This document shows, one piece after another, positions 1 to 37,678 of a stretch of 64,000 nt of DNA. Numbering within the stretch: the stretch's first letter is position 1; every line of letters starts with the position of its first letter. The notes beneath the pieces were generated by a model that had not been told where the DNA came from, did no database searches, and worked only from the letters and a program-made list of their open reading frames with translations. Made by a program: the position numbers and the translations under genes. This DNA is from Eledone cirrhosa (taxonomy: Eukaryota), in contig OZ024741.1 of assembly GCA_964016885.1 (NCBI GenBank), forward strand, positions 50,716,001-50,780,000, read 5' to 3'.

Positions 1-3000
1 GTATGTGTGCATGTGTATATGCTTTGTATCTGTACATGTGTATATGCAGTTATTAGATGCAACATTTTGGGAATGTTTTTCATATTTTTACTGTTCCATA
101 ATGGATTGTACTTGTAATTTCCTAACTAGTTGTGTTCTTTCTGTTCCTGTGAAGCCTAGCTTCTCAAGATTTGTATTGAGGCAGTTACTAACATATCCCA
201 GTGCCCCAACAATCACAGGCATAAATCTGAAGGTGTAATCAGGGTGGAGTATCTGCAGATTTCTCATCAGTTCTGCATAAATATTCTCCTTTTCACTAAT
301 CTTTGATATTATATTGGCATCTGCTGGGCAGCTAATTTCCACTACTGTGCATGTTTTCTTCTCCCTGTCCCATATCATAATATCTGGTCTGTTATGCCTG
401 CATTTTATTGGGGTTTTTACTGGAACATTCCACCAGTCCTCTTTCATATTATGTACATGGATGTCTTCCACATTGTTGTAGCTTTTAATGTGTTTATTAT
501 CGGGGCTATCTTTTTTACGAACTGCATTGTACAGTGTTTTGGCCACTACATCATGCCTCATAGGTAGATAGTACCGCGATGACATCTTTGGGAAGCTGCT
601 GATGACATGGGTGATATCCTCGATGTTAGTTCTGCAGAGTCTGCACTTGTTATCACATCTAGGTGTTTTGCCTGCATCCCCTATCTCTTTTGTGAATCAG
701 GTATTTCGTACTAATCTCCTGTTCTTGGATTGCAAAAGCGTATCCTTCAAAGTGGGAGCCAATATAGTGGTTGTTGGTCCAAGATAGACTACTTTCCTTA
801 TCTATATTACTCTCACTCTGGAGCTTCCTGGCAACATATCCATGCATGATTTTTTGCTGATAGGCATGCAGTTTTTCATCCATGGATTCACTGCGATACT
901 GCTGAGCGACATCCCTGGGTGTGAGTTTTTGATTATCACACAGGGAATATCTCTCAAGGAGTTCCTTCCCAACTCTCATGATCTTATCTGTTTCATGCAG
1001 ATAGACTTGCTCGAGAAACGGGCTCCTACGCTTCGAGGTTCGTAGATGTTGTCGGAGAGATATGATGCGATTCAAATGTTGTCTGGACTGATGTTAGGCC
1101 TCTGCTTCCCTGCTTACGTTTCAAGTAAAGGCGGTCTATGTCACTGTTGATGTGTAAGTTTCCGGTGTTGTTCAGTATTTTTCGAGTTCCAACATCAACT
1201 GCTCGGATTTTGTCTATTGTCCAATTGAGTATTCCAAACGTTGGTGTTAGGACAGGCACAGCAAACACATTGTGAGCCACTGTTTTGTTTTGCGCAGAGA
1301 GTTCCGATGACCAGATCTTTCTTAATCGGGTGTAGTATTCCCTGGTTACGCGTTTTTATTACAGATACCATTATAGGATATGTTCTTATCTATCCCCAGG
1401 TATCTGTAGCAGTCCTCATCAGATATCGGTGAAACAGTTAGACCATTGATGACAATGTTGCTAGATTGGGTTGTTGTTTTTCCCCGCTTTACAGTCATGT
1501 AAGAGCATTTATCTTGGCCAAACTCCATTCCTATATCCTTTGAGAACGTTGTAACCAGGTCAAGATTTTTCTTCATCCCATCCATGTTCTTGGCATAGAG
1601 TTTCAGATCGTCCACAAAGAAGTTATGGGTTAGGTTTGTATTTCTGTCCTCCTGTGAGCCAATGATGTATCCCTCACATTTCTTGAGCAGAAAGGACAAG
1701 GGGTTTAATGACAAGATGAACAATATCACAGAGAGACTGTCCCCCTGAAATATACCCCTGCAATATTTTATTTTATCAGTGAAAATAGAGTCCCCCCTCT
1801 CTGTCTTTAACCTTAGGATAGTAGCCCAAGAAGAAGACAGCCTCTCTATGGCTCTGACAATAATATCTGGGACTTTAGCAAGTTGGAGGGCCTCTATCAT
1901 CCAAGAGTGGGAAACAGAATCGAAAGCTTTCCTGTAGTCCAGCCAGACTGTAGTCATATTCCTCCTAAGTTGTCGCACCTCCGACATCACAGTTTTGTTG
2001 ATTAGGAGTTGTTCAGCACATCCCCAAACCCTTTTCTTTCCAGCTGCTTGTTCATCTGTGATGATGTTATTATTTTCACAGTGATCTTGGAGGAATAGGT
2101 TGAGGCAGGCTGTATACATCTTATACATCAGGTTCTGGCATGCAATGGGTCGGTAGTTTTTTGCCAAGTGGGTGTCTTTGTTCTTGGGAACCAGTAACGT
2201 TTGTGCTAATGTCAACCATTCTGGTATAAGTGTATCTCCCTTAAGAACTTGTTGGTAGAGGTCAGTAAGATACCTCCGATAGAATATTAGTTTTTTGTAC
2301 CAGTAGCCGACAATCATGTCTCTTCCTGGTGTTTTCTTATCTTGGAGTTTTCCTATCACAGTCTCAAGGGTACCCTCACTTATTTCGTATGTTTTTGTTG
2401 TAGTGTAGGAGCAATAGTTCTTTCGGATTTCTCTTAGCCACACTGCATCTTGGTTGAAATTCTTCTTTTCACCCCATATTTTTCTCCAAAAGGAATCTAT
2501 GTCTTTCTGGGATGGGGCCTCAGTGACACTTATTATTTTGCCCTTCATATCTCTATAGACTGATGTTTGGTTTCGTCTGAATCTTTTGTTAAGCATTTTT
2601 CTCTCATCTACCTTCTTCAGGTATCGGCGTTTTTCGCTAACAGCTCTCAATTCTTGTTTGAGGGTGATCAGCTTATATTGGAGAGTTCTGGTTCTACTGT
2701 TACCAAACATCGTCTCTATTTTATTTTTCACTCTTTGTTGGTGAGGAGTGAGGTTTTTTTGTGTTTGTTTGCACATGACCTATGTTTTTTCGTAGGTCAG
2801 CAATCTTTTTTTCTATTTTAGTTATATATGATGATATTTTTTGGTGGTGTTTTGTTCTTGTTAATATCTCTGCTATCACCAAGATAATGTTTCAGTCATT
2901 GCTAAGGCATATAAACAGGTTATGATTTGCCAAAATGTTGGGGTTTTTATCCGTCGTAAATATTCATCCCCTATTTCGTCAATAACACGTAGTATTTCAT

Positions 3001-3937
3001 TATTTGGTTTTTTATTCACCATTATCATTTTAACACATTCAGCCAGAGAGATATTTATACATGAGTTAATTTCTCTCTGGAAGATTTCGTTGAGGGAAAT
3101 TTTCAATTGTTTATACTTTTGATTATCATTATCGATAGTATTTTCCACAACAGTCGAGGTAGACTTGGATGGTATACGTGGTGTCACATTTATTTGATTA
3201 TTATTATTATTTCTTCGATTATTATTATTATCGATAGTGTTTTCCCCAGCATTCGAGGTAGACTTAGATGGTACAGGTGGTGTCAAGTTTCTTACAGGCA
3301 TAGTTGTTTCAAGGCGCTGTTCGACCTGGCTGCTAGGAAGTCTAGTAGCATGGCGATCTGTAGCACGTGTTGTTGATTCCATGTTTGTTGTGGGGGACTT
3401 ACAATTAATAATATTTATCTTATTTTTACGTTCAACAAACGTCGCTTGTTGGCGTAATTGTTTCGCTGTCAAATAATTTAGCTCTGGGTGTATTTCGTCC
3501 CAGTGTAGCTTCATTCTTTTCATATAGCCAATGGAGGGATTGTTTTTTGCCATTTTATAACAATTAAATAAATCATTATTAAGTTCGCAACTCCAAGAGA
3601 AATGCGATTTATAATTTCGGTTTCTTCTGTAGCTACAACTGAATAAAGTTTGATTACCTTCTTTGTTATTTGTCTTCGATACTTCCTTAATTTTCTTGTT
3701 GATGTTGTGTTCAGCCATGCTGTTTGTAGCAAATCCTTGTAAAATGAATTATGTATTTAGTCGGATATCTCTACGAATTCGAATAAAAGGTGTCTTCAGA
3801 AGGGATAGTTAGAAGAATAACCAGTTATTCAACCTGGCTGTAGTTGTGGCATTACTGTCGGAGATAGTATTCATCTTAAATTTAATAAATAGTCTCCCAC
3901 GCCAAAATATGTGACTGATCGCGTTGACTGATGGAAT
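1..3937 (-). mobile_element. R4/Dong-type non-LTR retrotransposon (RT + REL endonuclease), near full length, frameshifted; 3' end runs off the window
   Basis: Minus-strand ORF pieces 3718-2876, 2776-1346, 1280-1026, 1075-659 and 585-88 give an N-terminal W..E.N..L..CY..GY.KRM...W domain, RT motifs (NYRPIAC, WLDYRKAFDSV, GIFQGDSLS, FVDDLK), a CCHC-like knuckle (CRLC...H...), RHD and RPDIM...EISCP...K. The 5' end abuts (TGTA)n at about 3945. Confidence 0.93.
1346..2776 (-). pseudogene. Reverse transcriptase domain of the R4/Dong element
   Basis: 476-aa ORF with RPIA, DYRKAFDSV, QGDSLS, FVDD and YRYLG; flanked by frameshifts. Confidence 0.95.
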
Positions 3938-5600: not shown

Positions 5601-6277
5601 ATAATAATAAATTTGAAGACTAAAATCCAAAGAGGGCTCGATAAGGATAAATTATATATCAGATATATAAGAACCGTAGAGCAAATATTTATTAAAATAA
5701 CAGATTAAAGTTTAAGCAAAGAATCGCTGCTTTCACCCTTAACGGGATCTTCTGAAACTAAAAAAGTCAATCTGTAAACGCAGAAGTAAATATTTCAAAA
5801 AACGTTGCAACCGAAGGAAGACAGGAAGACGATACTTTGGTTCGTGGAAACGTTCCTTGGCAAAGAACGGAAAAAACGAAGATAATACATCATTATTTGG
5901 TGCGGCGAAAACAATTACACGCAAAGACAAAACCATGTTTATGGTATAAATGAAGTCGTAGACTAATATTCTATTAGGTGGTTCATGGAGACGTTCTCTG
6001 GCAATGAACGAAAAAAACGAAGATAATACGTCATTATGTGGAGCACTGAGAACAATTACACGCAAAGACAAACTTTAATCTGTTATTTTAATAAATATCT
6101 ATATATATATTGTTATACTTGGGGAGGGTCATATTTGTGTAATAATATTGCCAGAATTAATAACAGAACACACTCACTGTTTGGTTGGTTTTCGCTTCTG
6201 TATCTTTTAATTTATTCGGTCCTCAATGTTACCATTGACTTACCAACGGTTAAAAATACAGATATAATTCATCGCCG

Positions 6278-6365
<88 letters not shown>

Positions 6366-8366: not shown

Positions 8367-8409
8367 GTCAAAGTTCTTTCGTCACACATTCTGTGACCTC
8401 TTCAGTGAC
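8367..8409 (-). ncRNA. Minimal type I hammerhead ribozyme (family A)
   Basis: GTCA CTGAAGA G GTCACA-GAATG-TGTGAC GAAA GAAC TT TGAC. Confidence 0.8.
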
Positions 8410-12447: not shown

Positions 12448-14004
12448 TGGGGATTCTTTTCTTTGTTTTTGTGCCTCTCCTTTGTTCTGTCCTACGCCAT
12501 TTTGTTTCTGTGTGTGTGTTGTGTGCTCAGTCTGCGCATGCGCCACATCCGGGGTCTGTGTGTGTTTATATTCGTTTATTTATTTGTTTATTTACATGTT
12601 ACCGGTTGGTTGCTTGTTCTATGTGCGTGTGTGTTTTCATTCTGTCCTTAATTGTAAGTTGTGATGTTGCTGTTCCACTTATATTTTCTATTTAATTTTT
12701 GTTGTAATTCTTTTATGTTTATTGCCTCTGTGATTTGTCTAAACATTGCGTCTTTTCTGTGTGTAGATTCTATTTTTATTTCTATGTTCTCTAATTTACC
12801 CTTATGTTCTATTTTAGCATGTTGGTAGAGTACAGATGATTCTTTACTATCTTGAAGGTCTCGCCAGTGTTCATTTATCTGTTCCCCTACACTACGAGCT
12901 GTCTCACCTATGTACACTATATTTTTGTCTCTACATTGTCCTTCAGTACATCTTATGCTATATACTACATTTCTAGTTTTACAGTTAATATGGGGGCTTA
13001 TTTTACAGGTTATTCATTTCTTATCTATACAGGGGGGTCTTTGAAAAGGGTATGCCTTGCTAATAAGTGTTTTTACGGAGGTACCTGGTCTTTCTACTAT
13101 CTTAATATTGAGTTTATGTTTATCTAGGGCCCTTCTAAATTTGTAAGCTAATTCAGCTCTAGGGGTTGTATCGATGAACATTACACTCTGGTATTTATTG
13201 CTATCATACCATGAGTTTATTCTATTAGCCTTATTCCTAGTTCTTTCTATTCTATTCCAAAATTTGCTCCTATACAAGGGGCAGGTCCCATTTGTGTCAT
13301 TATTTACCATTTTTTCCCATTTGGTTCTGGCTCCTCTATACACTCTGATTTTATCTCTCTGATTGTAACCAGAGAACTGCATACAGTGGATGAAGTGTTG
13401 TATGTGTCTCTCTAGTTCTTCGGGGTTGCACATGCGGGACACGTTTCTCATCACCCGTACCAAATCCAAATGAAATAGCTCGAAGAAAGACTATTCTGAG
13501 CCGTGTAATATAGGTTAACACACTGCTCCTTCGTTGAGCTGATTTTAGCCCCATACAAACGGCTGTTATTTCTAGCAGCACGAGTATGTGGCTAGCTAGA
13601 CACTGGATAACCGTATGAGGTTACCTCGTGCGCTAAACAGTCTTCCTAAATATTTTGAAGTGGAACATACCAATTTTGATAGTGCTTGCTGAGGAGATCA
13701 AAATGCGGTATTTTCTTCCACTTTTTCATTATTCGAAACATATTTGGATTTTAAGGTTTAAACCTGTCTACGGAACAGGTTTGATTTTGAAATTTAAATT
13801 TGTCCAAGCACTACGGCCATTGCCAATACAATTTGTTTTTGTTGATTTATGATATATTATCTTAAGTCATGATAGGCAAACTGTAATATTATTATTAGTA
13901 TATTTCTATCTAGCTAACTTGGTCATTTACAATACAAACATAAATATGAGGATATTTGTGTTTATCAAATATATTGATTTGTGTTAACCTATATTATGTA
14001 TATA

Positions 14005-14048
<44 letters not shown>

Positions 14049-14099
14049 AATATGTATATGTATATATATATATATATATGTATATGTATATGTATATCT

Positions 14100-14133
<34 letters not shown>

Positions 14134-14334
14134 ATGGGGAGGGTCATATTTGCGTAATATTGCCAGAATTAATAACAGAACACACTCACTGTTTGGTTGG
14201 TTTTCGCTTCTCGCTGTCTTTTATATATATATATCTGCGATCTAACTTACTCGGTCCTCAATGTTGCCATTGACTGACCGGCGGTCAAAAATAATACAGA
14301 TACAATATAGACAAACACATATATATATAGTTTA

Positions 14335-14374
14335 CATAAATCTTTCGTTGCACATCTGCAACATCGTCAGTGGT
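14335..14374 (-). ncRNA. Minimal hammerhead ribozyme (family A')
   Basis: CA CTGACGA T GTTGCA-GATG-TGCAAC GAAA GATT TA TG; stem I is short. Confidence 0.7.
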
Positions 14375-14644
14375 GTTATATTCATTGTTCCTCCTGTTGT
14401 GTTGTATGTCTACGCCATTTTTTTTTTGTTCAGTCTGTCTATATATTTATTTATTTATTTGCTTGTTTGTTTATCTTATTTTATTTTATTTTGTCTTCTT
14501 TGCGCATGCGTTTGCGTGTGTGTATAGTGTGTGATGTGTGACTAGTGTGTATAGTGTTGTGTCTGCTGGGTGACTAGTGTGTGTTTATGTGCTTGTGTAT
14601 GTATTTATTTATCTTATTTTATTTAATTTAATTTACTTATTTAT

Positions 14645-16246
14645 TTATACTTCTCTTAGGTCAGTGTTGTTTGTTTGGGTGTTGTTGTTGTTCCACTCAT
14701 TCTTTCTGTTTAGCTTTGGTCTTCTAATTTCTATTTCACTGGCCTCTCTGATTTGCCTATCTGCTGGGTCATTCCTATGTTTAGATATTATTCTAATTTC
14801 TATGTTGTCTATGTTACCGTCATGATGTTGTCTAGCATGTTCGTATAGTACTGACCCGTTTTTTCGTCCTTTTAGTTCCCCCCAGTGTTGGTCTATCCTT
14901 TCACCTATGCTACGAGCTGTCTCACCTACGTATGTTGTTGTCGTGTTTCTGCAAGTACCCTCTGTACATCTTATGCTATAGACTACGTTTCTAGTTTTAC
15001 AGTTTATCCGGGGGTTCACCTTACATATGATACATTTCCTATTGGTACAGTGGGTTTTCTTAAAAGGGTAGGTTTTGCTGATCAGGGATTTTATGGTGGT
15101 TCCTGGCTTTTCTACCACCTTTATTTTTAAGTGGGTCTTTCTCAGGGCCTTTCTACACTGGTTAGCTAATTTCCCTCCAGGGGTGGCGTCCACAAACATG
15201 ACACTCTGATATCTCTGGTTGTCGTACCATGATGTGGCCTTCCCTATCTTATGTCTAGCCCTATCTAAGCTATTCCATGATTTGCTCCTGTATAGTGGGC
15301 AAATTCCTTTCATGTCCAGTTCTATGAGGGTCTTATACTTTTCCATGGCTCCTTCGTATACTCTGACTCTGTCTCTTTGGTTGTAGCCAGAGAACTGCAT
15401 GCGGTTGATGAAGTGTTGGATGTGTCCTTCCATTTCTGTTGGGTCGCACATGCTGGACACATTCTTCATCACTCGTACCAAATCTGCGATCAGAATATTA
15501 AACTTAGCACTACTGGACATTGCTGAGTTTTTGAGTATCAGGTATTTGGAGGCCATGGGTTTAGCATAGTGTGAGTGGAGAATTTGGGCTCTCTCGTCTA
15601 TAGTGTTAATCCAGAGTTCTGTGTCTAATACAGGTAGTCTATTGTTAGGGTGTTTGGAAGGGAAGTCTATAGTTACAGTTATACTCTGGTGTATGGAATT
15701 AGCTATCTGCTGGATGCTTTCCATCGTGCTACGTTCTAAATCAAACTTGTTAGTGCTCTCTAGTGGGGGTGTTCTTATAACTATATTGATATCGTCTACA
15801 TAACGAGAGTACATGATGAGGTCTATGGAGCTTTCATTAAGGAGATCTTTAAGTCTCCTTTCCCACCATACCATGAAAAGGTTGGCAACATCGCCAGCTA
15901 TGCTGACGCCGATGGCTGCTCCCTCATTTTGGGTGTAGATTTTCTCATTGAACTTAAATATGTGGCCCTTTAGGGTAGTTTTGATACTAGCCCCTATTGC
16001 ATGTGCGACCATTTTTCTTACCTGATCAGTGTTTTGGGGGGTCCGTATAGCTTTGGTCCACCCAATCCACCTTCCTATGGGAGTCTTTTTAGCCATTGAG
16101 GTTATGGTGGGGGGTCTACCTCTTATAGGTCTACTAGGGCAGAAACATCTAAGGTCATGGCTGTCTAGGTAGTCAGTGTCGTAGGTAAGTCTAAGTAGGA
16201 GGCCCAGTTCGTCTGTGTCGACGTCGCAGAACTCCACCTCACTCTC
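14645..16246 (-). pseudogene. PLE RT C-terminal half + GIY-YIG endonuclease, uninterrupted ~530 codons
   Basis: 542-aa ORF in the track; its first ~9 residues come from the inverted segment. Confidence 0.92.
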
Positions 16247-16522
16247 AATATCTGTTTCGACACACGATTTCATATAAAAAACCTCGCAAAACTAATTCAT
16301 CGCCGCTATATATATATATATATATATATAATGTTTTATATAGAAATGGCTTCTACAGGACTAGAACTGTTTCACTTAAGAGAAATCATCAGGAAAGGGC
16401 TTTCCTGATATATGATGTTTACACTCTACTAATGTATTGAGTACCTTACTAATTGTGGTTACTCCCGATTGAACCCAGAACTCTCAAACATTCTCTCTCT
16501 CTGTCTCTCTCTCTCTCACACA

Positions 16523-23683: not shown

Positions 23684-23689
<6 letters not shown>

Positions 23690-25118
23690 CGTTTATGAAT
23701 TTGTTTAGCAAGATTCTTTATCTGAAAACGTGTGCTGAAACCGATATTGTTATACTTTGGGAGGGTCATGTTGCCAATAAGAAACACACGCAAAAAAACA
23801 GATCCTCCATTCCCATTATGCCAAGCCCACGACTTCCAAATATCTGATCCACCGAAACTCAGCTGTTTCGGACCGCACCAAAATCAACATACTGATTGCG
23901 AATTTGGAACGGGTGATGAGAAATGTGTCCCGCATGTGCAACCCCAAAGAACTAGAGAGACACATACAACACTTCATCCACCGTATGCAGTTTTCTGGTT
24001 ACAATCAGAGAGATAAGATCAGAGTATATAGAGGAGCCAGAACCAAATGGGAAAAAATGGTAAATAATGATACAAATGGGACCTGCCCCTTGTATAGGAG
24101 CAAATTTTGGAATAGAATAGAAAGAACTAGGAATAAGGTTAATAGAATAAACTCATGGTATGATAGCAATAAATACCAGAGTGTAATGTTCATCAATACA
24201 ACCCCAAGAGGTGAATTAGCTTACAAATTCAGAAGGGCCCTAGATAAACATAAACTCATATATTAAGATAGTAGAAAGACCAGGTACCTCCATAAAAACA
24301 CTTATTAGCAATACATACCCTTTTCAAAGACCTCCCTGTATAGATAAGAAATGTATAATCTGTAAACTAAGTCCCCATATCAACTGTAAAACTAGAAATG
24401 TAGTATATAGCATAAGATGTACTGAAGGACAATGTAGAGATAAGAATATAGTGTACATAGGTGAGACAGCTCGTAGTATAGGAGAACGGATAAATGAACA
24501 CTGGCGAGAGCTTCAAGATAGTAAAGAATCATCTGTACTCTACCAACATGCTAAAATAGAACATAAGGGTAAATTAGAGAACATAGAAATAAAAATAGAA
24601 TCTACACGCAGAAAAGACGCAATGTTTAGACAAATCACAGAGGCAATAAACATAAATGAACTCAAACCCAAATTAAATAGAAAGCATGAATGGAACAGTA
24701 ACATCACAACTTACAATTAAGGACAAAATGAAAACACACACGCACATAGAACAAACAACCAACCAGTAACATGTAAATAAACAAATAAATAAACAAATAT
24801 AAACACACACAGACACCTGCATGTAACACATGCGCAAACTAAGCACACAACACACACAAAAATAAGATGGCGAAGGACAGAACAAAGGAGAGGCACAAAA
24901 ACAAAGAAAAGAATCCCCAGTCACTGAAGAGGTCGCAGAATGTGTGACGAAAGAACTTTGACAATATATGAACAATCGTCTGGTTGTGGAACCAACCAAC
25001 CAACCGGAAATTTATAAATTCCTAAATTTATAAATTTAATTTATAATAAATTGAAGTGAAAGCAACTGGTGCGTGTGTTTCTTATTGGCAACATGACCCT
25101 CCCTAAGTATAACAATAT
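23684..25118 (+). mobile_element. PLE family A, 5'-truncated, with inverted terminal arm (23684-23791 minus, 23791-25118 plus); HHR at 24920-24962
   Basis: Highly similar to 8153-9510; GIY-YIG ORF at 24451-24720; both ends in (TA)n. Confidence 0.93.
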
Positions 25119-29704: not shown

Positions 29705-30341
29705 TTCTGGTTTTATAATTTCACAATTTTTTCCCCAATATAGAGAGAGTCGGTTTCTAACATAGACACAAGACTCTCTCATTGGAATTTACACAGCTAG
29801 GTAGATTATGTATGCATGCACGCATGTGTGGATATGGATGTTATTGTATGTGTGGATGTGTATGTTTTGAGTTGTATGTGTGCATATGTATATGCTTTGT
29901 ATCTGTACATGTCTATATGCAGTTATTAGATTCAACATTTTTGGAATGATTTACATATTTTTACTGTTCCATTAATGGATTGTACTTGTAATTTCGTAAC
30001 TAGTTGTGTTCTTCCTGTTCCCGTGAAGCCTAGCTTCTCAAGATTTGTATTGAGGCAGTTACTAACATATCCCAGTGCCCCAATAATCACAGGCATAAAT
30101 CTGAAGGTGCAATCAGGGTGGAGTATCTGCAGATTTCTCATCAGTTCTGCATAAATATTCTCCTTTTCGCTAATCTTTGATATTATATTGGCATCTGCTG
30201 GGCAGCTAATTTCCACTACTGTGCATGCTTTCTTCTCCCATATCATAATATCTGGTCTGTTATGCCTGCATTTTGTTGGGGTTTTTACTGGAACATTCCA
30301 CCAGTACTCTTTCATATAATGTACATGGATGTCTTCCACAT
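29705..30341 (-). mobile_element. 5'-truncated copy of the first R4/Dong family (REL domain + complete 3' UTR)
   Basis: 29873-30341 closely matches 1-472; ORF 29932-30339; (TGTA)n on both sides. Confidence 0.93.
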
Positions 30342-30416
30342 GTATGTATGTGTGTATGTATGTATGTATGTATGTATGTATGTATGTATGTATGTATGTA
30401 TGTATGTATGTATGTA

Positions 30417-33400
30417 TTATCTTTTTCTCTTAATTTCGAGTATATTTTTTTTGACCGGCCACCTTCCTGGTGGCAAGGTTGTAAAAGAAAAGAAATTGTC
30501 ATCCCTTGAATCGCAAGAATGTTTTGCAAATTTTGAAGGTGCCAGCTATCGCAGCCATTTGTAGACTATGAATTAGGGAGCTGCGCTTTTTGTCCGCAAA
30601 TCCAAGTTCAGTCATACTTTGGTCCAAGCGGGTTGGTATATAACCCGTAGCTCCAATAATGATGGGTATGAAGCTAAAGGTGTATACTGGATGTGTAAAC
30701 TCCTCATCAATGGTCCGTAGATGTCCTCCTTCTCCTGTATTTTTCTGACAACGTTTACATCAATTGGGCAGCTGATCTCCACAACAGAACACGTTTTCAA
30801 TGTGTGGTCCCAAACAACAATATCAGGCCGGTTGTGCTTTAATTTGGTGGCAGTTTTTATTTTCAGGTTCCACCAGTATTCCTTAGTGCCATCTGTCTCA
30901 ATATATTCTTCCTCGTTTGTTGTTAATTTTGTTTTCCGAAGTGCGTTCCAGATGGTTCTAGCTATCCCATCGTGTCCCATGGGGAGGTAGTAGCGAGATG
31001 ACATTCTTTCGCATTTGGCAACAATGTGGCTTACATCCTCGATCTTTGTTTTATATAGCCTACATTTATTGTCAGCTGCTGGCCCTCCTCTTTTGTGCAG
31101 CAGATATTTGGTAGGGAGTTCTTGTTCCTGTATTGCATAGAGATATCCCTCAAGGTGTGATGTCATAAACTTGTCGGAACTCCATGCCAGGCTTTTTGAG
31201 TGGTTTATCCCCTCTATGGTCTGTGTTTTACGCCTCAAGTATCCATGCACAACTTTTTCTGTAAATTGGTCAATTTTTTTTATCTTGTTTGAACATTGAA
31301 TAGGATCTTCCAATTTCTCTGGGTGAGAGATTTATATCACGCTTTATTCCATAACTCTCCTCCAGATCAGTCGCTATTCTAATGATATTTTTTTTTTCAT
31401 GCTCATAAACCTGGGTAAGATGGTTGCCAACCTTTTTCCTCTGTTGAAGGTGTTGCTTCAGTGTTACTATTCGGGTCTCATATGTTGTTGATATTGATTT
31501 TAGACCCCGGCCACCTTCCTTGCGTGAGAAGTATAGCCTATCCACATCACCATTGATGTTAAAATTCCCAGTAACACTGAGAAGTTTTCGAGTTCTAACA
31601 TCCATCTCACTTAGTTCTTGCAATGACCAGTTCAGCAGGCCAAATGTTGGCGTTAGAATTGGCACAGCATAAGTATTGTGGGCAATGTATTTGTTGTACG
31701 CTGACAGTTCTGATGACCATATTTTCTTTACTCTTCTGAGGTATTCAGTTCTGGTTCTCTCCTTATTTATGGGTCCATCATATCTGACATTCTCATCCTG
31801 TCCAAGATATCTGTAGTTGTCACCTGACTGTAGAGGTTGTATTGTCAGGCCGTTCATCTCTAGATTTCTAGAGGAGGGCACATCTTTTCCATGTTTTACT
31901 GCCAAATATGCACACTTGGACTCACCAAATTTCATTTTGATGTCGGTTGAAAATTGTGTAATGAGATCCAATTGTTTCTTGATGTCATTGATATTTGGCC
32001 CATACAACTTCAGGTCATCAACAAAGAAAAGATGGGAGATACTTCTGGGCCCACTTCTTTGTCCACCTTGTTTCCTGAGTAGGTAAGATAGTGGATTCAG
32101 TGAGAGAACGAAGAGTAGCACTGACAAGCTATCACTCTGAAAGATGCCCTTCTGGTAATGTATCTTATCAGTCTTAACTTGCTCCTTCTCACCTCTAAGG
32201 ATCAAATTGGTGTACCAGTTCTTGGTCAGGCGTTCAACAGCAGCTACAAATGGTTGTGGGACTTTAGCTAACTGTAAAGCCTTAATAATCCACCCATGAG
32301 GTACACTATCAAATGCTTTTTGATAGTCCAGCCACACCACAGTTATGTTTCTGCGATTCTTTGTTGTTTTTTCCTGAATCATTTTGTTAGTTAGTAGGTG
32401 ATCTATGCAACCCCACACCTCCCTCTTTCCACCAGCTTGCTCAGGTGTTATGATGTTGTTGGTAGCACAGTGATCCTGTAAGAACAGGTTAAGGCACCCA
32501 GTATATAATTTATACATGATGTTTTGGCAGGCTATTGGGCGGTAATTTTTAGCAAGGGTGGTTTGGCTATTTTTGGGAATGAGGAGAGTAGTGGCAGTTG
32601 ATAACCATCTGGGCAGTTCTTGTGTGCCTTTAATGGTTTCTGTAAAGAGCCGTATGAGATCTTGCCGATAGAAAGTGAAATTCTTCAACCAGTATCCTGT
32701 AATGAGGTCTGGCCTTGGCGATTTCCTATTCGACATTTTCTGTAGAGCTGTTTCCAGTATTGACCCATCTCTGTCATATTGTTTTGTCTGGACATGTTGG
32801 CAGTAGTCCTGTTCCAGTTCTTTTAGCCAATTAGTTTGTCTGTTGAATCCGTCATCCGTTTCCCATACAGATCTCCAGTAGCTCTCAACCTGTTCTTTTG
32901 AAGGGGTGTCATTTAAAGGGATTGAGCTTTTGCCACCGAAGCTGCGATAAACTGATTTAGGATCTCTGGCAAACAATCTATTTAGCACTTGTCGTTTATG
33001 TGCTGTTGACTTATATTTTAGTCTTTCTGTTGTAGCTGTGAGTTGTTGTTTAACTGGTGTAATTTGGAGTTCAAAGTTTTAAATTTTGTATCTCCAAATC
33101 GTCTCTCTAACTTTTTGTTTAGGTCTTCCTGGTGTCGTGTGAAGCTGCTCTCTATGTTGCATTTCATAACGACTGCGATGTGTGAGATACTTCGTCTCAG
33201 GGACAACATTTTGCTTTTTAAATTTCGCATCCACGCTGGTTCAGGCTTTCTGTTTGTATCTTGATTGCGTGGTTTTAGATGTGTGTTATATGATAGCAAT
33301 GTGACAGCTGAAACATATAACAAAATATTAAGAGTTTCAAATGTCGTTTCTACACCTTTAGATCGTATAGCCTTCAGATAATTGCTAGCTATTTCGTTCA

Positions 33401-34646
33401 CCGCTTTCAATTCCAATTTAGTGGGTTCTTTACTGATTCTGGTGTTGTATGGTCTGTCAACAACATTAAGGTTGTGTATCTCTTGAAACATATCGTTCCA
33501 TATCACTTGTAGGGTGTCCACAAGTTTTTGGTGCTCTGTTTGTTCAGTAGAGTCATGAATTTCAGCCTTCGTGTTGATGTGGTGACAATTACTACTAGAG
33601 TAAGCTGACTTTTCTCGCTGTTCTTCAGTGGAAGTGGGATGGATTTCAGCAAAATTGTTGGTGAGCTGTTCACTGTTAGATTTAGCTGGCCATTCTCTTT
33701 GTCTGTCAGTGGAGGTGGGGTGGTTGTCTACAAGGGCTGTATTTGTAGTATCACTCAATTCCGTTAGATGTATCAATTTACATCTAATGATACGTTTTGC
33801 CTGTTCATTTAAATGCTTTGGAGAAAAGTCTAATTCTAGGTGTTTGGAGTTCCATAAAGTTTTTAGCCTTTGCATAAAACCGAACTTTTGGGGTTCAGAT
33901 TGTTTGTATACTTCATATAATACTTTGTTAAGCTCGTAGCTCCACTGTATACAGCGGTTGTAGTTGCGATTTGGTCGAAGAAGACTTTTACTTTTTGCCA
34001 CGATGAGTTCGTCTATTCACTAATATTTCGTATTTATTTTTCAAAATAGTCGATGATCTTCTTTAAAAGTTTCGACAAAGTTCTGTCAGAATCAAATTTA
34101 AAGTTATTCACAGCTTGGGTAATATTTCTTTTCAGTTAGTTTTTAATTCTACAACTGTGTTTTAAACGTTGTTCTTGAATCGTTTGAATCGAGAACAAAA
34201 AGAACCGTTACTTAGTATATTTCTTTATGAATGTAATATTTCTTTATGAATGTAATAACAACGCTGTATTTATATGTTAAAGTTTATGTATCATTCATAT
34301 AAATAGGTGTTCTACAACTTATTCACAACATATTCACAGTTCAAACACTTATGTTTTTGTTTCTGAATCGAAAACGTTACTTGTATATTTCTTTATAAAT
34401 GTAATATAACAACGTTGCATTTATATGTTAAAGTGTATGTATCGTTCATATATCATAAGTGTATGTATCGTTCATATAAATAGGTGTTTTACAACACACT
34501 TACAGTTCAAACACTTATGTAGAATTATTGTATGTAATCTTACTGCGTAATGTAGCTCAACTTTTTCCAATATATGGTATGTTGCCTTCATGTAAGCCGT
34601 AATTACACACGTCCGATTATTGGACACTGACCACAACGGTCGCCAG
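30417..34646 (-). mobile_element. Second R4/Dong family, full length (~4.2 kb), few frameshifts
   Basis: ORFs 34001-33018, 32988-31270 (RT: WLDYQKAFDSV, FVDDLK) and 31313-30612 (knuckle, RPDIV, EISCP). The 5' UTR has a ~170-bp tandem duplication at about 34205-34520. (TGTA)n on both sides. Confidence 0.95.
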
Positions 34647-35887: not shown

Positions 35888-37678
35888 CAGGGTAAAGCCA
35901 ACATTTGGCCGTAACGGACTGCTTTTTATAGTAGCACGCAACCTGCCAATGTCCACCTTACTACCCCCCTGTTGATTACATATCACGTGATAATTCTTCC
36001 ATTTGTAATTTATACTGATATATATAATTATATACTTACCAAGCGACAATGAATTATACACAGAGATCCCGGACATGACTGCAGCCCAGATCGAAAAACA
36101 GACCAACTCCATCTGGTTCGATATCTGTAGGAGAAGACAACTCCCAAATAAAGTTAAGCTCAACTACACCACTAGAAATAGCAGACTGCCCACTTTCTAC
36201 CACCTCATCAAGACCCACAAGAATAGCACTAATACGCAAATAAGACCCATCGTCTCTAGCATAGAAGGACCCCTATACAAAATTTCCTGGTTCCTCTCCC
36301 AGATCCTCAAGCCTCTACTCTCCACCTTTCCCGGGCATGTCAGTAGCTCCGACGAAGTTATACGTAGACTACACCAACTCCAGCCAGAACAACTTAAACT
36401 AAATAAATATGCTTTTAGCCTCGACGTTGTCTCCCCGTCTACACTACAGTCCCCGCTCATCCAGCTGTCGATTTATTGACGGACTGCGTGGTAGCAGAGG
36501 ACATCCACTGCTACGGCCTCCACCCGACGGACATACACCAGCTTTTGTCCTTCACAGTAGACAACACGTACTTCACCTTCCACCACCACACATACAGACA
36601 GACAACAGGATTACCCATGGGACCCAGCCTATCAGGCCTGCTGGCCATCACCTACATGAACCAGCTAGAATGCCGAGCCCTCAACACCTGCCATTCCCAT
36701 ACCTTCTTCACCCGATATGTAGATGACATACTCATCCTTACATCATCCCGTGAGGAGGCAGATAAAATATACACAACATTCTCCAGCATGGACGCCAGTA
36801 TAAAGTTCAGCATGGAACACCCCGATGACCGCGGATCCCTATCCCTACTGGACTTCCATCTCAGGGTAACAGAGGAAGGCAACATCCACACCTGCTTCTA
36901 TAAAAAAGCTGCCAGCAGGGACCTGTTCGTACATTTCAGATCGGCCCTCCCACTCGGTGCCAAGTTCGGATACATAAGGAACAAACTGGCACGTATCCGG
37001 AACAAATGCACCGACGCTAGAGACCGAGACACACACACCACACATTTCCTGGAAGTACTCAAACTGAACGGATACACGACATCCACCACAAACCGTGCCA
37101 GAAAGAACAGAGGACATCACACCCGAGGCACTAACACTTGCTTCCTGAAGCTCCCACACTTCAGTAAAGAAACAACAACAGCCATCTGCAGAGCTATCAG
37201 ACGAGAGGGACTAGATATCCAACTGGCCCACTCAGGTCCTTCTCTACGCGGTCAGCTAACCAAAAGACACTCCACCAGACATGACAACTGCTGCAGACTA
37301 GCCAACTGCCCCATCAACGACACAGACCTATGCCACCAGGCTTACGTCGTATACAGACTAGAGTGTGACAAATGCAACAACTTCTACGTAGGTAGCACCA
37401 CCAGACCACTCCACATAAGAATAAAAGAACACCTCAATACTAACGCTTCCTCATTTAAGAAACACCTAGCTAGTTAAATGCAAAAACACCGACAAAACCA
37501 TAACAGTTAGGATAGAAACTAAGGAAAGAAACCTCGGCAATCTTAGAATTAAGGAAGCACTAATTATAGACAAAACACAACCACCAATTAATAATAGACT
37601 AGAACTCAACACCCAATTTATAACTTGATAGAGCTCCTAGCCCCATATTTACACCCCCCCCCCCCCCCACACACGCAC

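Follow-up and report, generated by a model that had tools for sequence, protein, structure and literature searches.

Unequal pairing of fixed end sites in two-armed PLE insertions of the Eledone cirrhosa genome

In two large families of Penelope-like elements (PLEs) of Eledone cirrhosa, both ends of one insertion were almost never found at the same site of the element, and this was the strongest signal obtained in the present analysis. The near-strict exclusion of two start sites within single insertions is new, as are non-overlapping arms, which are not directly producible by the published self-priming model, whereas the layout itself, the inverted copies, the one-sided tail and the two start sites seen in vitro were already known. 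The window considered here is a stretch of 64,000 nt of contig OZ024741.1, in which an insertion with two head-to-head PLE arms in (TA)n, at positions 14135-16310, was confirmed as real. This insertion belongs to family C, whose coordinates are counted from the A of the ORF's ATG as +1, and copies of this family and of a second, related one, family A, were located by exact patterns in the 3.0-Gb assembly.

Fixed end sites and their pairing within single insertions

The clustering of ends at a few sites, which the earlier note had put forward as a check of its reading, was borne out. In family C, the ends fell at a proximal site (+22/26) and at two distal sites (+69/71 and +84), with minor sites at +13 and +19. 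The exact pattern spanning the ATG site presented 14,771 matches genome-wide in family C and 30,152 in family A. Among the first 100 family C matches, classed by eye, 57 ended at +22/26, 39 read on, three ended at +13 or +19 and one was other, and the first 100 family A matches were divided into 50 that ended, 49 that read on and one other. The family C copies that read through ended at +69/71 or +84 or entered the next tandem unit, while the +13 end was counted 312 times genome-wide and in two of the first 100 family C ATG-site rows. RNA folding around the end sites revealed no significant structure (z from -0.01 to -1.49). We infer that the "tail at one end only" corresponds to the distance between the proximal and the distal sites.

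Base complementarity with (TA)n does not choose these sites. The self-complementarity of (TA)n had been proposed as the cause of twin priming, yet better AT sites were hardly used: the perfect AUAUA at +44..48 was the end of 27 copies versus 8,017 with the tail start, and the internal (TA)6 was found in 2,741 copies, three of which extended the tract, with one clear and one possible end there, a count that misses ends with short or interrupted tracts. Every end site carries two to five AT bases, and the +84 site has three matching bases. Moreover, a palindromic target is not needed, since PAc, the Poseidon of Anolis carolinensis studied in vitro (Frangieh et al. 2024, PMC11167929), primes without homology, and Pen2a_Av presents the same layout with a 9-bp TSD (PMC3846280).

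The pairing of the ends was assessed from both sides. The tail sample comprised the first 100 of 3,338 distal-site pattern matches genome-wide, 99 of them with sequence, and yielded 83 tail-ended insertions once internal tandem junctions had been left out and one two-ended copy had been counted once. An inverted partner was present in 64 of these, (TA)n lay directly at the 5′ end in eight, eight had neither and three were unresolved. The partner could be typed for 60 distal ends and was proximal or at +13 in 57, distal in two (C1:21326603/21330626 and 36133893/36135459) and elsewhere in one. Conversely, 52 proximal ends with sequence were accompanied by a distal-ended partner (32), by (TA)n directly (13), by neither (4) or by a family A arm (1), two being unresolved, so that 32 of the 33 partners were distal ends and no proximal-ended family C partner was found among the 52. 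Copies with a single arm and with (TA)n adjoining its 5′ end directly thus made up 13/52 of the proximal-anchored and 8/83 of the tail-anchored copies, the two samples sharing part of their insertions. In family A, all 28 divergent pairs within 4.5 kb in the first 100 rows joined one proximal and one read-through end (27 directly and one after resolving a tandem). Independent site choice would be expected to give about half of the pairs unequal. The sampled copies come from one contig, within its first 90 Mb, together with 30 loci picked for their +13 end, and eye inspection decided several of the classes.

The only proximal+proximal junction found was that at C1:36626100-36628900, where a family C arm stands head-to-head with a family A arm, both proximal-ended and joined with 4-nt microhomology; this single case possibly reflects a single event involving two separate RNPs, or else a deletion that came later. 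The neighbouring insertions C1:36133893 and C1:36143407 share an identical inner junction (-68/-1434) and differ in one outer end (+71 and proximal, respectively). Tail-only inserts (about +15/23 to +84), TA-rich on both sides and with no adjacent inverted arm, were observed at C1:23083272, 23578288 and 23657020.

The focal insertion and the nature of the element

As the earlier note had described, the focal copy consists of a minus-strand body and a plus-strand end, both directed outward into (TA)n (Table 1). The long arm includes the 5′-truncated RT, the GIY-YIG endonuclease, the 3′ UTR/pLTR and the first 13 nt of the ORF, whose ATG lies at window 14147-14145, and its outer end, at the minor +13 site, reads ATGACCCTCCCCA followed by TATA at window 14135. 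The short arm codes for NICFDTRFHIKNLAKLIHRRY and then passes into (TA)n. It had been aligned to the N-terminus of family A, and it is indeed N-terminal, albeit of the element's own sequence, being the same in 64/64 nt as +21..+84 of a natural full unit (C1:86.06 Mb) that shares 98.5% identity over 2,166 nt with the focal long arm. The RNA stretch missing between the arms is +14..+20, in agreement with the gap of about 7 nt noted previously, and since CAAT is common to both sides of the junction, the short arm could start anywhere from +21 to +25. The focal +13 end may reflect slippage at initiation, or a proximal (+26) end that was afterwards shortened by a small deletion. The abutting layout is not due to chance, as it was found again at three independent loci, C1:23385922 (-3519/+21), 79146541 (-2543/+19) and 24239448 (-588/about +25). 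The focal copy is a young 5′-truncated PLE insertion of known layout.

Table 1. Features of the focal insertion and of two further two-armed insertions in the window
Feature	Position in window	Strand	Element coordinates or content	Basis
Second family C insertion ("copy E")	6107..6281		minus arm proximal-ended; plus-strand arm of 13-17 nt ending at +84	
Left (TA)n-rich target tract	13990..14134			TRF period 2, 73.5 copies; sequence
Long arm	14135..16249	minus	-2108..+13	match to natural unit; breakpoints
Internal (TA)6 of pLTR	14222..14234	minus	perfect match to (TA)n primer, hardly ever an end	
Hammerhead-like core in pLTR	14342..14372	minus	CTGACGA-stem II-GAAA	conserved core
Open RT-EN frame of long arm	14645..16246	minus	533 aa	ORF; motifs
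Short arm (PLE tail)	16246..16309	plus	+21..+84, distal-site end	64/64 nt identity to natural unit
Inversion junction	16246..16249		4-nt microhomology CAAT	
Right (TA)n target tract	16307..16330			sequence
Family A two-armed insertion	23685..25118		minus arm -22..+85 (distal) and plus arm -1267..+26 (proximal), overlapping	

By the definitions of PMC8557442, the element appears to be an EN+ PLE with a C-terminal EN, of the Neptune/Nematis type. This assignment relies on motifs, because the Pfam search of the RT-EN frame returned a weak RVT_1 match under the Pfam cut-off (E=0.0012) and no GIY-YIG match, and the protein relatives found, all of them unnamed, were of no use for placing the clade. 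The EN+ PLE motifs DKSG, SRYVDD and VVYSIRC-x4-C...Y(V/I)GET with histidines are present; in the long-arm frame they take the form of SRYVDD, the linker CTNRKCIIC (CX4CxxC), VVYSIRC-x4-C...YVGET and downstream histidines, and the linker conforms to the CX2-5CxxC pattern placed between RT and EN in Neptune/Nematis. Naiad/Chlamys was rejected, as it would need an N-terminal endonuclease and the EN is C-terminal here. The natural tandem units of 4,147 and 4,136 bp form tandems whose pLTRs take in the ORF start, tandem arms reach up to three identical units, and family C copies show the inverted 5′-truncated copy and the one-sided tail of EN+ PLEs.

A second hammerhead-like core was located at about 8378-8408 (minus) in family A, and its stem II letters differ from those of family C and yet stay complementary, with pairing judged by eye. 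The Rfam search returned no hammerhead, solely (TA)n/(GA)n noise matches. The core coincides with neither end site, and a ribozyme cut as the origin of the proximal site (cf. +26 in PAc) was rejected, as the core lies ~190-225 nt upstream of the ATG.

These traits are shared with the canonical EN+ PLE unit (Craig et al. 2021, PMC8557442; Arkhipova et al. 2013, PMC3846280), which likewise presents partial tandems, an inverted 5′-truncated copy at the 5′ end, a one-sided tail, (TA)n targets in clades with the CX2-5CxxC linker, an asparagine-rich ORF insert and a hammerhead motif to which the hammerhead-like cores may correspond. The family C tail differs in its 45-60 nt and its two distal sites, while PLEs are described with inverted 5′-truncated copies, a tail of 30-40 bp often at one end and (TA)n targets in PMC8557442, which attributes the inverted layout to endonuclease resolution. 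The portions available of PMC8557442 and PMC3846280 treat the layout qualitatively, with no per-insertion counts of end pairing and no appeal to twin priming, and the word "twin" occurs 0 times in PMC3846280. Literature searches for PLE twin priming retrieved no paper on it, and the accessible parts of PMC8969392, PMC12350158 and bioRxiv 10.64898/2026.07.22.740005 held nothing further on the mechanism.

Other elements were also observed in the window. Two degraded copies of one further RT-encoding retroelement family lie at 88-3748 and 30260-34016 (minus), their ORF content showing no relation to families A and C, and another PLE-like RT of a different lineage, with a GIY-YIG-like C-terminus (VVYRLECDKC..YVGST), was found at 36009-37477 (plus).

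Arm overlap, junctions and haplotypes

The tiling of the RNA by the two arms, which had been read as the signature of the event, holds for the focal copy with its 7-nt gap and fails as a general feature. Among 53 distal+proximal pairs, four abutted (+8..+27), seven were gapped and 42 overlapped by 36 to 2,103 nt (median 208 nt), so that 11 pairs, the focal copy included, had no sequence in common. The tailless arm extended further 5′ in 34 of the 53 pairs without being significantly longer (Wilcoxon p=0.075, n=53), and the arm lengths lacked a clear correlation (Spearman 0.23, p=0.08, n=61); as both results were non-significant, one RNA is not separated from two by these data.

The expectation that short arms would stop at the upstream site fared poorly, the 5′ stops of tail arms in +8..+27 reaching only about twice the rate of neighbouring windows (8 versus 3.8 expected, p=0.04), with 10 of the first 100 tail-bearing copies starting there by eye. 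This peak is weak and may be inflated by alignment into AT-rich sequence. The 5′ ends of family C arms also seemed to cluster at about -1414..-1441, -2077..-2119 (focal -2108) and -748..-783, which are possibly RT pause sites. A further apparent cluster at -280 was discarded as partly an artefact of alignment to the initial reference copy, which has a long poly(A), and a second natural copy served as the alignment reference afterwards.

Exact matching resolved 54 junctions, of which 26 were clean and the other 28, with unmatched or inserted bases, were left unscored. Microhomology of at least 2 nt was observed in 14 of the 26 clean junctions versus 14.7% at random positions, and in 12 of 24 once the focal copy and one duplicate were set aside. 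Three young near-perfect hairpin junctions were located at -287 to -301 of the family C pLTR (window about 14400-14440, around -290). Immediately upstream of them in the reading of the pLTR is not where the poly(A)-ATGGCG motif lies: the junctions directly precede this motif, which is common to family A and may be a YY1-like promoter motif.

The two arms of an insertion proved to carry matching haplotypes. At subfamily-diagnostic sites, own-arm discordance ranged from 0 to 0.25 and was mostly 0 (48 scorable of 49 pairs with overlap of at least 40 nt), whereas comparison with other arms gave medians of 0.3-1.0 for older copies and close to 0 for the youngest. The differences between own arms were for the most part private, amounting to as many as 70 in 2,198 nt (26 in 978 nt in another pair), and several arm pairs had common variants found in no other insertion. 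Pairs with only 0-3 differences, that is, young ones, were already unequal by kilobases (-2077/-3908, -3885/-780 and -5550/-510). The single insertion event is deduced from these haplotypes because no empty site or TSD is readable inside (TA)n. The earlier note had assigned both arms to one RNA, which goes too far: the shared haplotype fits one RNA and also two RNAs of one source, and gene conversion between arms may account for it.

At C1:42293187, C1:158498134 and C1:24374213, the terminal (TA)n is spanned by short duplications in inverted orientation, with the rare +13 end mirrored beyond the tract or a flank of ~45 nt mirrored at both ends, which looks like fold-back at (TA)n.

Origin of the two arms and its meaning for PLE integration

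The two arms probably end at different fixed sites because each cut target strand primed its own reverse transcription, and priming by both target strands is likely to be the usual integration route. Each outer end, read from the target inward, is antisense to the RNA, as expected from a target 3′ end extended on RNA. The earlier proposal of twin priming as the default is upheld as regards the two-armed majority (64/83 and 33/52), the junction microhomology and the single haplotype of both arms, and not as regards L1-like tiling and the palindromic primers, neither of which is general. In such a process, the element RNP would cut both strands of the (TA)n tract and bring the two target 3′ ends to different RNA sites, one to the proximal site (+22/26 or, in rare cases, +13/19) and the other to a distal one (+69/71 or +84), these sites being defined by protein and RNA and not by base complementarity, with the 2-5 AT bases merely steadying the start. 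Both cDNAs would be extended in the direction of the RNA 5′ end, each stopping independently of the other. Mostly, the distal cDNA would pass the proximal site, either displacing the other cDNA on one RNA or using a second RNA of the same source; in roughly one pair in five, the focal copy included, it would stop at or before that site. The cDNA 3′ ends would then be joined via 0-4 nt of microhomology or through a few extra bases. If a single RNA served both strands, each site could be used only once, which would produce the exclusion, and overlap would then need strand displacement, as would multi-unit tandem arms if the template were circular; alternatively, a dimer could hold two RNAs in unequal registers.

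A more specific version is advanced tentatively, as a possibility rather than a probability. The default integration of EN+ PLEs might be a programmed asymmetric twin priming, in which one RNP with two RT active sites would hold both cut target strands on one RNA, itself possibly circular and ribozyme-cut, in two fixed places separated by 45-60 nt, the trailing RT displacing the leading cDNA. If true, this process alone would yield the multi-unit tandem arms as well as the one-sided tail and the head-to-head repeats.

One observation against both-strand priming is the equality of the 5′ ends within 3 nt in five of 61 pairs, versus 0.42 by permutation, since such near-perfect hairpins are what self-priming predicts. 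In that process, priming takes place on one strand and the product, folded back, serves as its own template, the arms becoming unequal afterwards through central deletions; a version of this process with an antisense template has been proposed for head-to-head Penelope copies (PMC3846280). A hairpin that then lost part of its centre asymmetrically could pass for a pair of unequal arms, unequal ends would follow if synthesis left for (TA)n at the ATAT of +23..26, the shared haplotype is accounted for, and further equal ends occur in family A at palindromic pLTR motifs (-80/-80 and -57/-57). We nevertheless consider this origin unlikely, as direct fold-back nests the tailless arm in the tailed arm and, unless large central deletions followed quickly, gives neither the 34/53 pairs in which the tailless arm reaches further nor the 11 pairs without shared sequence, the focal copy included. 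Young pairs are already unequal by kilobases, and 13/52 proximal ends have no tailed arm. Strict twin priming of the L1 type, by complementarity of (TA)n primers to AT sites of one RNA, with the first cDNA stopping at the second primer, would explain the textbook geometry of the focal copy (7-nt gap and 4-nt microhomology), the by-eye starts at +8..+27 and the AT bases of every end site. It is quite improbable given that 42/53 pairs overlap, that +44..48 and the internal (TA)6 are so rarely ends and +84 matches in three bases, and that the layout is known for a PLE with an ordinary 9-bp TSD (PMC3846280).

The fusion by deletion of two unrelated insertions in one (TA)n tract has in its favour that elements do land side by side in (TA)n and that one head-to-head junction links family C to family A. 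It predicts random pairing and mixed haplotypes, in conflict with the unequal pairs observed (57/60, 32/33 and 28/28) and with the matched haplotypes, and is highly improbable. An assembly or read-chimera artefact is scarcely credible: the focal junction was absent among the listed contigs and reads of four public runs, an absence that decides nothing either way, and a scaffold gap starts ~215 nt to its right, while the ends are fixed in two families, the private mutations of older arm pairs are unlike palindromic chimeras, and 159 raw short reads of a 2026 run join the tail to an antisense-looking 3′ UTR, with a loose-end agreement of only 0.64. Matched haplotypes together with private differences thus disfavour both fusion and read chimeras.

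Priming by both target strands has counterparts in two characterized systems. In PAc, both target strands are cut and extended, cleavage is AT-rich, a dimer is predicted, and RT is initiated internally, close to the ORF start, at two sites that delimit the tail (PMC11167929). [quoted passage not shown] In bulk, PAc start sites did not differ between the strands, which is compatible with per-molecule exclusion and with its absence alike, and PMC11167929 does not connect the two start sites with both ends of a single inverted insertion. In L1 twin priming (bioRxiv 10.1101/2024.08.27.596794), both target ends also prime, the 3′ ends face outward and joining involves microhomology, and the family C insertions correspondingly have two arms joined at their 5′ ends, RNA 3′ ends outward and junction microhomology. 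In L1, the first primer sits on poly(A), the second at a variable internal site of chance complementarity, and the arms nearly abut, with 66% of inversions carrying a deletion and 17% a duplication (medians of 14.5 and 22 bp). In family C, by contrast, both sites are internal and fixed, the overlap mostly reaches hundreds of nt, two arms are the majority outcome, and a first cDNA ending near the second primer was found in the focal copy and in 4/53 pairs overall.

PLEs are the sister group of telomerase RTs, and the origin of their inverted ends and one-sided tail is called unresolved in PMC8557442, PMC11167929 and PMC3846280, as far as the consulted portions of these sources go. Non-overlapping copies such as the focal one count against direct self-priming, and the proximal+distal pairing rule, in two families whose ATG-site matches number about 15,000 and 30,000, is a constraint for any model of how these elements integrate.
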